A stretch of 64,000 bases of DNA, taken from Faecousia sp. Lineage in GTDB: Bacteria > Bacillota > Clostridia > Oscillospirales > Oscillospiraceae. The stretch is taken from assembly GCA_045540155.1 (NCBI GenBank), contig JAZQGT010000050.1, forward strand, positions 16,493 to 80,492, written 5' to 3'. Every line of letters begins with the position of its first letter. Position 1 is the stretch's first letter. Below, in pieces: positions 1,635-41,110 of this stretch. Both the position numbers and the translations under genes were made by a program. A model generated the notes under the pieces. It did not search any database and was not told the origin of the DNA. It worked only from the letters and a program-made list of their open reading frames with translations.

Positions 1635-1895
1635 ATGAATATCCAGCGCTGCTCCGATTGCCACTATTACTTACGGCACTATACGTTTGACCGGCGAAAA
1701 ATCTTCCGCGTTCACTGTGGACATTGTACTTTCAACAAGGTAAGACGGAAACAACCGGATTCAACCGCTTGTGAAAACTTCATGCCCAGCACCCCACAGG
1801 AAGATGCTTTTGTATCCAAGGAATATTTGAGCAAAGAACTGCTTCAATACTTACTCAATTTGGAACTGTTACCGAAAATCGAGGACAGAGGATGA
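1635..1895 (+). CDS. Small Cys-rich (putative Zn-binding) hypothetical protein
   Basis: Strong GGAGGT RBS; CxxC...CGHC...C pattern; divergent from the Xre gene. Confidence 0.65.
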   Translation: MNIQRCSDCHYYLRHYTFDRRKIFRVHCGHCTFNKVRRKQPDSTACENFMPSTPQEDAFVSKEYLSKELLQYLLNLELLPKIEDRG

Positions 1896-2059
1896 GGGAT
1901 TCGATTTAATTAAAGTTACGCTCCGTCGAGCCGTCGCGCGCAACAGTTCCCGGACTGTTGCATTTAGATGGGTTTGAATCCCCCTCAGCCGAAGCCAATA
2001 ATAAAAGCCACCCAAATGGGTGGCTTTTATTATTGGCAGAGGATGAGGGATTCGAACCC
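1886..2059. repeat. tRNA-Gln-associated palindromic element: 19-bp copy of the tRNA 3' region, an internal hairpin, and a long imperfect inverted repeat that includes the tRNA 3' end
   Basis: CAGAGGATGAGGGATTCGA occurs at 1886-1904 and at 2037-2055; hairpin GCAACAGT...ACTGTTGC; inverted repeat 1970-2059. Confidence 0.75.
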
Positions 2060-2108
2060 CCGCAAACGGAGTCAGAGTCCGGTGTGCTACCGTTACACTA
2101 ATCCTCTA
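2034..2108 (-). tRNA. tRNA-Gln (CTG)
   Basis: Reverse complement TAGAGGATTAGTGTAACGGTAGCACACCGGACTCTGACTCCGTTTGCGGGGGTTCGAATCCCTCATCCTCTGCCA; cloverleaf, CTG anticodon, encoded CCA; upstream TTGACT-N16-TATAAT promoter. Confidence 0.95.
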
Positions 2109-37152: not shown

Positions 37153-37385
37153 CCGCCACCGGCAACAAAACGCTACTGTGCTATTTGAATAGTGGTGCTG
37201 CTCTCCTGTTGCGGTGCCCGGCATCTGCCTGCGTCGACAGCGCTCCTTGGCATCTGTCCACCGCTGCCACTCCCTCGGGTCGCTCCTCCCGCCACCGGCT
37301 GCGCTCATCCGCGCCGCATTTGATCTTTCAAATCTGTCTTTTGTCCATATCAAAAGCCCCGTCCATCCGGACGGGGCTTTTGATA

Positions 37386-37408
<23 letters not shown>
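37153..37408. repeat. tRNA-Thr-associated palindromic element
   Basis: Inverted repeat 37327-37408 includes the tRNA T-arm and CCA end; CCGCCACCGGC occurs twice; degenerate tRNA-end-like copy at 37172-37189. Confidence 0.65.
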
Positions 37409-37461
<53 letters not shown>

Positions 37462-37516
37462 ATTTCCTGACAGCCTTGCCATTATATCGCAGCCACGTAA
37501 AATTGTCAACCCTTTT

Positions 37517-40970: not shown

Positions 40971-41110
40971 AAGCCCTAAAGGCAACAGCCTTTGGGGCTT
41001 TACTTATTACCTCTTCACTCTTCACTTTTCAATAAAAATGCCTTTAGGGCTTTGAAGTAATAAGTAATAGTGAATAGTGAAGAAGTTGTGGTATCCGCTT
41101 CGCGGATGAT
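40970..41110. repeat. Nested inverted repeats with heptamer-like tandem units downstream of tRNA-Leu
   Basis: AAAGCCCTAAAGGCA...TGCCTTTAGGGCTTT; TACTTATTAC/CTCTTCACTCTTCAC versus GTAATAAGTAATAGTGAATAGTGAAG; ATCCGC-TTC-GCGGAT. Confidence 0.6.

Follow-up and report, generated by a model that had tools for sequence, protein, structure and literature searches.

In a 64,000-nucleotide stretch of DNA from Faecousia sp., hereafter called the window, the tRNA-Thr(GGU) gene is followed by a long hairpin whose outer arm repeats, in inverted form, the end of the very tRNA that precedes it. This arrangement raises a question in two parts: How does the DNA behind a tRNA gene come to carry the sequence of its neighbor, and what keeps the two alike? 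The initial annotation had proposed that the locus belongs to a genome-wide family of elements with ends copied from the target tRNA, either by template switching or by a dedicated recombinase. ARAGORN finds three tRNA genes in the window, and the features of the Thr locus are the following.

37481-37509, minus strand: promoter of the tRNA-Thr gene (TTGACA-17-TATAAT, 12/12 in the promoter scan).
37386-37461, minus strand: tRNA-Thr(GGU) gene with encoded CCA (ARAGORN, ggt; Rfam tRNA model, 72.5 bits).
37386-37408, minus strand: a1, nucleotides 54-76 of tRNA-Thr (T-loop, 3' strand of the T-stem, 3' strand of the acceptor, CCA), the segment that is copied.
37344-37389, minus strand: T1, a perfect hairpin with 21-nt arms, an A-tract before it and a T-tract after it (repeat search and folding).
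37327-37343, minus strand: a', inverted copy of the tRNA-Thr end; its T-loop/T-stem part (37327-37339) matches at 12 of 13 positions and its acceptor part has decayed.
37313-37326, minus strand: remnant of the 5' end of the module M, reading ATCAAATGC in tRNA sense and then the first strand of hairpin 1, with GCATTTGAT at 37316-37324.
37195-37312, minus strand: nested copy of the repeat R2, its first ~11 nt missing, joined to the M remnant at the GAGCGC common to both (nhmmer match at 37203-37307).
37193-37202, minus strand: 10-nt copy of the tRNA-Thr 3' end (AGCAGCACCA versus AGCAGCTCCA; 9/10, 90%).
37172-37189, minus strand: degenerate direct copy of the tRNA-Thr end (TTCAAATAGCACAGTAGC), likely a relic of a2, weak at ~13/19 and read by eye.

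The hairpin T1 follows directly upon the CCA, with perfect 21-nt arms (37344-37364 and 37369-37389) around a 4-nt loop; the arms take in the TCCA of the tRNA together with a mirrored TGGA, and the 9-bp G+C core (GCCCCGTCC/GGACGGGGC), followed by TTTTGATAT, belongs to a structure that is terminator-like in both directions. A simple terminator scan missed it because the U-run sits within the extended stem. Farther out lies the 13-nt arm at 37327-37339 (TTCAAATCTGTCT), which the repeat search finds 92% complementary to the T-loop and T-stem of tRNA-Thr (37396-37408), and the two paired blocks flank a bubble of 7 x 9 nt over the acceptor strand. When 37318-37412 (minus strand, 95 nt) is folded as RNA, the energy is -51.9 kcal/mol against a shuffle mean of -19.6 (z -10.8), a stability attained by none of 200 shuffles. 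Because the loop letters read ATTTGAA in the arm and TTCAAAT in the tRNA, the arm must be a true inverted copy and not a product of the self-symmetry of T-stems, and it carries, as had been claimed, the TTCAAAT variant of this particular tRNA. The claim that the distal arm mirrors the end of tRNA-Thr also holds against controls: its own tRNA ranks first among 34 in local alignment with the arm, with a score of 11 that 0 of 500 shuffles reach. The same test applied to the whole assembly gives the top rank to the own tRNA for 7 of 11 elements, while tRNAs devoid of an element score 4-8, except Leu(taa) with 12. It could be argued that we are dealing with an ordinary intrinsic terminator, since the core of the palindrome looks like a normal terminator hairpin, and that the extended complementarity to the tRNA arose by chance; considering the shuffles, the rank of the own tRNA and the recurrence of the same architecture hundreds of times, we regard this reading as refuted.

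A sister element lies near the beginning of the window.

1886-2107, minus strand: Gln sister element, behind tRNA-Gln(CUG) (2034-2107).
1982-2049, minus strand: palindrome a1-T1-a' with arms of 33 nt.
1905-1969, minus strand: module M without hairpin 3.
1886-1904 versus 2037-2055, minus strand: a2, an exact 19-nt direct repeat.

Here the exact direct repeat and the 33-nt-arm palindrome fully sustain what had been reported of the Gln case, and the junction GCATTT(A)GAT, previously noticed just outside the arm at both loci, proves to be the conserved 5' end of M (ATCTAAATGCAAC in tRNA sense). The statement that the Thr element has the same architecture as the Gln element is right for the proximal half; the module, on the other hand, has mostly been replaced by R2, and the marker on the far side is weak. 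That marker, a degenerate tRNA-end-like copy placed at 37172-37189, does match over the T-loop plus AGYAGC, but the 10-nt copy at 37193-37202 is the better one. Beside tRNA-Gln, an open reading frame for a Cys-rich protein of 86 aa (1635-1895 of the window) has its stop codon within the displaced 19-nt tRNA-Gln end, a2; the protein finds no match in Pfam. A cmscan of the Thr and Gln elements against Rfam returned only the three tRNAs at the gathering threshold and only noise at E <= 10.

The family was defined from the 3' flanks of all 35 tRNAs in the 1.40-Mb, 56-contig assembly (G000), about a third of which are followed by the same layout: a1, the tRNA end (its last ~21 nt, from C56 of the T-loop to CCA); T1; a', the inverted copy; M, a module of ~85 nt with three covarying hairpins that starts with ATCTAAATGCAAC in tRNA sense and ends with GCAAAAATGCAAA; and a2, a direct copy of the tRNA end, often followed by a second terminator, T2. 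Other tRNAs thus carry the motif, as the initial annotation had anticipated, and its genome-wide family is borne out by a combination of HMM and covariance model, which detects at least 16 copies in this assembly and 435 matches in 50 of 61 Faecousia genomes, with 0 to 26 per genome. The same models find no match to M in 140 genomes from 92 other genera of the order. The family is gene-less, non-autonomous and specific to the genus Faecousia, and it resides on the 3' flank of genes for more than 20 tRNA types and for tmRNA. The Thr and Gln copies, and every other copy with an upstream gene on its contig, lie directly downstream of a tRNA or tmRNA in the same orientation; because every copy is oriented alike relative to its tRNA, an invertible switch is ruled out. 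Tandem arrays occur at C53, C21 and C12 and in genomes G006 and G060.

Within this family, the Thr copy is a decayed, chimeric member in which most of M has been replaced by the unrelated repeat R2. What remains of M is its first ~25 nt (ATCAAATGC and half of hairpin 1), too little for the family HMM to detect the copy. The ~110 nt that follow (about 37195-37312) belong to R2, and beyond them come the 10-nt tRNA-end copy (TGGTGCTGCT versus TGGAGCTGCT, 9/10) and then the weak copy at 37172-37189. The M::R2 junction is a microhomology chimera that can be seen directly; a later join at GAGCGC would have swapped most of M for R2.

R2 itself is a structured, G+C-rich repeat of ~118 nt (consensus GGGGAGCGAnGGGAGCGCCGCCGGTGGCGG...GAGCGAGTGGCCGCGGTC...CCGGGCACCGCAACAGGA) with two covarying domains; mean column identity in its alignment is 77%, two-sided changes affect 15 of 26 predicted pairs, and Rfam contains no match. 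It has ~220 matches in 29 of 61 Faecousia genomes, G000 included, with up to 35 per genome. R2 is enriched in the vicinity of tRNA genes: 14 of 38 copies inspected have a tRNA within 400 nt. Most of these are upstream of the tRNA and on the same strand, and the upstream copies are inserted after the ...TGG of the D-loop or anticodon loop in a partial 5' copy of the tRNA (Pro-UGG, Leu-CAA and Leu-UAA); R2 is also nested in 3' elements of the M type. Besides the window, the assembly holds these copies of R2:

C43: 16292-16410.
C31: 4849-4966.
C11: 85091-85210.
C38: 12709-12826 and 12874-12991.

Other repeats share the habit of residing beside tRNAs. A shorter, second type of module occupies the same a'...a2 frame at three loci (L024 in G006:C135, L017 in G057:C3 and L040 in G057:C16) and has ...TTTTTAGCCCGTGGGAGA as its last letters ahead of a2. 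Within Faecousia, then, several modules unrelated to one another share one architecture. A third tRNA-linked repeat lies in the window at 40971-41110, behind tRNA-Leu(CAA), and recurs in G000 behind tRNA-Pro(CGG) (C36), behind tRNA-Leu(UAG) (C40) and after T2 of the Tyr element (C37). Its order is terminator, ACTTATT..CTTCACT, AAAAAT plus a copy of the 3' arm of the local terminator, AAGTAATAAGTAATAGTGAATAGTGAAGAAG and a short hairpin, and two sub-blocks of the flanking repeat are inverted individually (x y ... x' y'); it is another module with locally templated sequence.

How variable is the occupancy of a single site? Ten species have an identical tRNA-Thr(GGU), and comparison of their 3' flanks shows that occupancy varies between them: a canonical element in G017, tandem canonical elements in G006 (the second unit having a 21-nt a', TGGACAAAAGACAGATTTGAA, identical to the window arm), variant elements in G015 and G002, a tyrosine-integrase island in G009 (PF00589, E 4e-32), what may be the end of an integrase-like gene, judged by reading only, at the contig end in G018, and a plain terminator only in G014, G001 and G004. 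A scan of metagenomes with the tRNA-Thr promoter for a conspecific pair of filled and empty sites gave 0 matches.

The question of what is maintained in these elements can be addressed by comparing the three copies of the tRNA end. For the direct repeat a1/a2 the median length is 21 nt, with a start at C56 or T55 and CCA at the end; it extends through the terminator, T1 resembling T2, in only 6 of 49 copies. While a2 is often decayed or devoid of CCA, a' is often a near-complete mirror of a1 that includes the CCA (up to 22/23). Seven T-arm sites distinguish a1 from a2, and at every one of them a' goes with a1. The maintained unit is consequently the palindrome a1-T1-a' and not a helix between a' and a2, which argues against selection for closing such a helix, and a2 would represent a decaying relic. 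The stems of M were analyzed in the same manner: two-sided changes number 60 versus ~6 one-sided ones, no measure is reached by any of 500 shuffles, and pairing is almost purely Watson-Crick, with ~1 G-U per 25 pairs. Strong covariation with so few G-U pairs is the pattern expected of DNA hairpins or self-templated palindromes. The folding energy of M shows no strand preference (p = 0.28), and the strands can be told apart only by the tandem G.A of one hairpin type, hairpin 2, which is favorable just on the tRNA-sense strand; the loops GCTNGA, GGTG and GAYGAG are conserved.

These properties bear on the idea that a'-M-a2, or its complement, is a small RNA gene in the tRNA operon, with arms kept by selection on the RNA. 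The arms would form a CCA-ending mini-helix resembling an acceptor/T-arm, which tRNA-processing enzymes would excise from read-through transcripts, as with RrA/B/F and RtT of E. coli. Covarying hairpins, conserved loops and the strand-specific tandem G.A all speak for a function of this kind, which is also compatible with a DNA-level origin and does not exclude it. Nevertheless, a' tracks a1 and not a2 at 7/7 sites, so that conservation does not concern the a':a2 helix; the stems have almost no G-U pairs, which sets them apart from typical RNA stems; and a2 is frequently decayed or without its CCA. Moreover, read-through into M should be low because of T1, a perfect and very strong hairpin with a U-run behind it, and the gap of only ~25 nt between T1 and M leaves no room for a promoter. 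We therefore see an RNA gene as possible but doubtful. A guide RNA (an omega, bridge or crRNA-like scaffold whose guide, on the antisense strand, would match the tRNA) was considered from the layout only and dropped, since there is no linked nuclease or recombinase and no strand preference, and a' mirrors a1 through the CCA.

The relationships among copies at different loci add a further element to the puzzle. Cores of M that are 88-95% identical reside at different tRNAs in different species, each with arms specific to its own tRNA and with a T1 that is usually unrelated; near-identical pairs are Arg-type/Gln, Pro(UGG)/Arg(CCG) and Arg/Pro(GGG). Either the module moves and its arms are templated anew, or cores are converted ectopically between resident elements. 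Together with the top rank of the own tRNA in 7 of 11 cases, these pairs uphold the earlier claim that the ends are copied from the neighboring tRNA. T1 was rejected as part of a mobile unit, being unrelated between near-identical cores at different tRNAs and similar to T2 in only the 6 of 49 copies mentioned above. One exception to arm matching is the tRNA-Gly(CCC) copy (G000 C42), which has T1 and a' of the Arg(CCG) type and is interrupted by a REP.

The explanation that we prefer, with a probability of roughly one half, is that the element originates in DNA, through template switching or fold-back at hairpins, and is maintained in the same way. It starts from what is observed, namely the anatomy, the direction of arm matching and the absence of an enzyme association. 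The tRNA end, present forward, inverted and again forward, would amount to a small inverted triplication with T1 and M as its turn-arounds. T1 would serve as the pivot: a1 would be the template of a', correction within the palindrome would afterwards keep the two alike, selection on the tRNA would police a1, and a2 would be left to decay as a relic. M, in turn, would move or be homogenized between tRNA loci by recombination or template switching, and this exchange may be anchored on the T-loop sequence GGTTCGAAYCC (with its palindromic TTCGAA), which is found on either side of M and in every tRNA gene. Tandem arrays and precise loss would both result from slippage between a1 and a2, and a dedicated enzyme would not be needed.

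A different origin is suggested by the direct repeat from T-loop to CCA, which is the usual footprint of integrases that target tRNA genes. The element could be a miniature integrative element that depends on a site-specific recombinase acting in trans, with crossover in the T-loop. The insert would be a1-T1-a'-M and a2 the displaced original end of the tRNA, as in integrase-borne islands and in CIMEs, which derive from them but lack the integrase; a1-T1-a' would then be a folded, single-stranded att site mimicking the double-stranded tRNA end, comparable to CTX attP and integron attC. The functional tRNA end is indeed always on the side of the element, beside a fresh terminator, and tandem arrays look like the result of accretion at an att site. 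The tRNAs in question also host the tyrosine-integrase island of G009, prophages and serine-recombinase islands. Hairpins paired by Watson-Crick rules only would suit a single-stranded DNA substrate, and the succession of paired, bubble and paired segments in a1-T1-a' recalls attC and CTX attP. Against this, a single family of M is found at more than 20 tRNA types plus tmRNA, a range unlike that of known integrases, each of which recognizes one or a few tRNAs; T1 as a rule does not accompany M from one tRNA to another; and no core site resembling the 5' strand of the T-stem is present to the left of a2. No recombinase gene was found adjoining the Thr or Gln copies, and the neighbors at Thr are ordinary transporters (Mem_trans, EamA). 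Serine recombinases, finally, are unlinked to copy number and their islands arrived after the element, as detailed below. We judge this origin unlikely. A pattern scan of viral contigs for an autonomous copy borne by a phage or plasmid gave five loci, two of them true copies that both prove to be host tRNA-Lys flanks, and no autonomous copy.

More specific enzymes could be envisaged as mobilizers: an HUH transposase (RAYT/IS200-like), the large serine recombinase (LSR) that adjoins some copies, or a reverse transcriptase primed on the tRNA 3' end, with a' akin to a primer-binding site. In 10 of ~28 loci inspected, an LSR gene stops at the exact point where the tRNA end would lie, and the 18-22 nt of the tRNA-end copies correspond to the length of primer-binding sites. 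This adjacency is, however, about as common as elements are behind tRNAs in general (~14/35), and the mean copy number of M is 7.1 in genomes with an LSR gene versus 7.2 in those without. Where a copy is linked to an LSR, its a' agrees with a2 instead of with the 3' end of the recombinase gene, which implies that the LSR island arrived later; one and the same T1-a'-M-a2 is preceded by an intact tRNA-Arg in G045 and by an LSR gene in G065. The LSR was hence rejected as mobilizer: the adjacency is real, copy number is unaffected and the islands entered tRNAs that already had the element. The LSR genes look like co-tenants of the same tRNA hot spot, carried by islands that apparently integrated in the acceptor region of tRNA genes already bearing the element. 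In G000 these genes (Resolvase, Recombinase and Zn_ribbon_recom domains) are found at C31:3243-4724, C12:1054-2522 (frameshifted) and C50:3062-4519, the last of them 13 kb upstream of the window; the LSR open reading frame continues into a tRNA-like ...CCA and a terminator.

As to the other two enzymes, Y1_Tnp is lacking in several module-rich genomes (G017 with 20 copies, G057 and G035 with 15 each, G059 with 13) and RVT_1 in G017, G036, G051, G057 and G000. Neither Y1 transposase nor RVT_1 is associated with copy number in a test of co-occurrence that covers the three enzyme families and incomplete MAGs, and both were set aside. A RAYT-like gene with GTAG-type REP hairpins does lie inside a variant copy at tRNA-Arg(CCG), and a remnant of such a unit at tRNA-Gly(GCC); but the RAYT unit has inserted itself in hairpin 1 of M and brings its own REPs, different in sequence from M. 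At the level of co-occurrence, mobilization by any of these enzymes is largely refuted and very improbable, and the dedicated recombinase or HUH transposase of the initial annotation finds no support in these tests, as neither LSR nor Y1 nor reverse transcriptase tracks copy number.

The RAYT/IS200-like gene encodes 175 aa with a weak Y1_Tnp match (E 3e-4) and is accompanied by GTAGGGGCGGCCAATGGCCGCCCCTAC REP hairpins, some of them inside the gene; loci with RAYT and REPs are G000 C32:11200-12050 and C35:96367-97716, both outside the window. Behind tRNA-Arg(CCG) the RAYT unit sits in hairpin 1 of M. Behind tRNA-Gly(GCC), at the same position in hairpin 1, a remnant homologous to the 3' flank of the RAYT gene, a REP hairpin and an ORF that is putatively of the AraC family, judging from its N-terminus, split M by ~1.2 kb.

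The closest parallel to these elements comes from E. coli, whose tRNA-linked repeats (TLRs) reportedly include the 178-bp repeats of tyrT-tyrV with the RtT RNA, and RrA, RrB and RrF behind 5S rRNA (Egan & Landy 1978; Rudd 1999). To our knowledge, these repeats have been known since 1978 without an accepted explanation of their origin and function. In total, 22 TLRs of E. coli have been described, each with a final 18-19 bp that duplicate the upstream gene's 3' end; they are so far without known function, and RrA/B/F are transcribed, processed and bound by Hfq and CsrA (PMC8144298). We checked the trailer of E. coli tyrV directly and found that each 178-bp unit consists of an inverted GGGGAAGGAT, a hairpin-rich core and the 19-nt AATCCTTCCCCCACCACCA. 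The Faecousia elements are likewise non-coding units directly behind a tRNA gene (in E. coli also an rRNA gene) in the same orientation. They too end in a copy of the 3' end of the upstream gene, 18-19 nt in E. coli and of median 21 nt in Faecousia, exact over 19 nt at Gln and decayed at Thr to the 10-nt copy (9/10) plus the weak 18-nt one. In both organisms an inverted partial copy (GGGGAAGGAT at tyrV) closes a hairpin-rich core, tandem arrays are formed and units are boxed by two terminators (rrnB T1/T2 in E. coli). There are differences as well: the Faecousia elements have no similarity to RtT in sequence or covariance model, RF00391 (rttR) giving no score even at E <= 10; M is specific to Faecousia; a perfect T1 between a1 and a', absent from the tyrV unit, yields a palindrome with arms of ~40 nt; and the repeat starts at C56 (21 nt) instead of A58/A59 (18-19 nt). 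Since the likeness is architectural only, we consider the Faecousia family to be of the same kind as TLRs and not a member of the RtT family of Rfam.

Other known systems resemble the elements in part. With the att duplications of integrases and CIMEs they share the repeat from T-loop to 3' end, the restoration of the tRNA by the copy on the element side, the tandem arrays and the tRNAs that host tyrosine- and serine-recombinase islands; unlike these, they have no integrase, a unit of ~150 bp, more than 20 tRNA types as hosts and an a' that has no counterpart in classical attL/attR. As in CTX attP(+) and integron attC, an imperfect long hairpin reproduces a double-stranded target, with a paired/bubble/paired succession and Watson-Crick-only stems, but there is no link to Xer or IntI, and the target is a tRNA gene instead of dif or attI. 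Quasi-palindrome template switches and DUP-TRP/INV-DUP rearrangements equally present a segment forward, inverted and forward, with hairpins at the turn-arounds and arms kept identical by templated correction; these, however, are sporadic mutations and not a recurrent family with a conserved module. REP/BIME and MITE-like repeats are small, gene-less, intergenic hairpins in many copies with nested insertions, as here, yet REPs are mobilized by RAYT and not tied to tRNA ends, whereas the Faecousia arms are copied from the neighboring gene and show no RAYT association.

We count in favor of template switching that E. coli tyrV has the same layout with an unrelated module. Several points count against it. 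The metagenome scan turned up no pair of filled and empty sites that would delimit the inserted unit. The high identity of cores could be due to ectopic gene conversion among old residents instead of new insertion. Template switching alone leaves the conserved loops and the tandem G.A of the tRNA-sense strand unexplained, which suggests a function at the protein or RNA level. Furthermore, spread over more than 20 tRNA types within one genus looks like active transposition, which usually depends on an enzyme, and past activity of this kind is compatible with its present absence.

In practical terms, these elements explain double terminators, pseudo-att sites and tRNA-like fragments behind tRNA genes, features that are easily mistaken for the borders of islands, antisense regulators or guide RNAs. 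What this analysis adds are the near-identical cores at different tRNAs with matched arms, the a' that follows the functional tRNA end and not a2, the almost purely Watson-Crick stems and a copy number unlinked to serine recombinases, HUH transposases and reverse transcriptases. In a wider perspective, TLR-type elements might be a widespread form of mobile DNA without any element-encoded enzyme, in which a module colonizes loops of tRNA genes and both of its flanks are re-templated from the target: M would be a 3' family at the T-loop, R2 a mirror-image 5' family at the D- and anticodon loops, and the TLRs of E. coli the same phenomenon, a generalization that we advance as speculative and, for now, unlikely. 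The options have nonetheless been narrowed, for the palindrome of tRNA end, terminator and mirror copy is the maintained unit, the distal direct repeat a relic, and M is exchanged between loci. Faecousia, where young and diverse copies run into the hundreds and occupy more than 20 tRNA types, makes the question of TLRs tractable.
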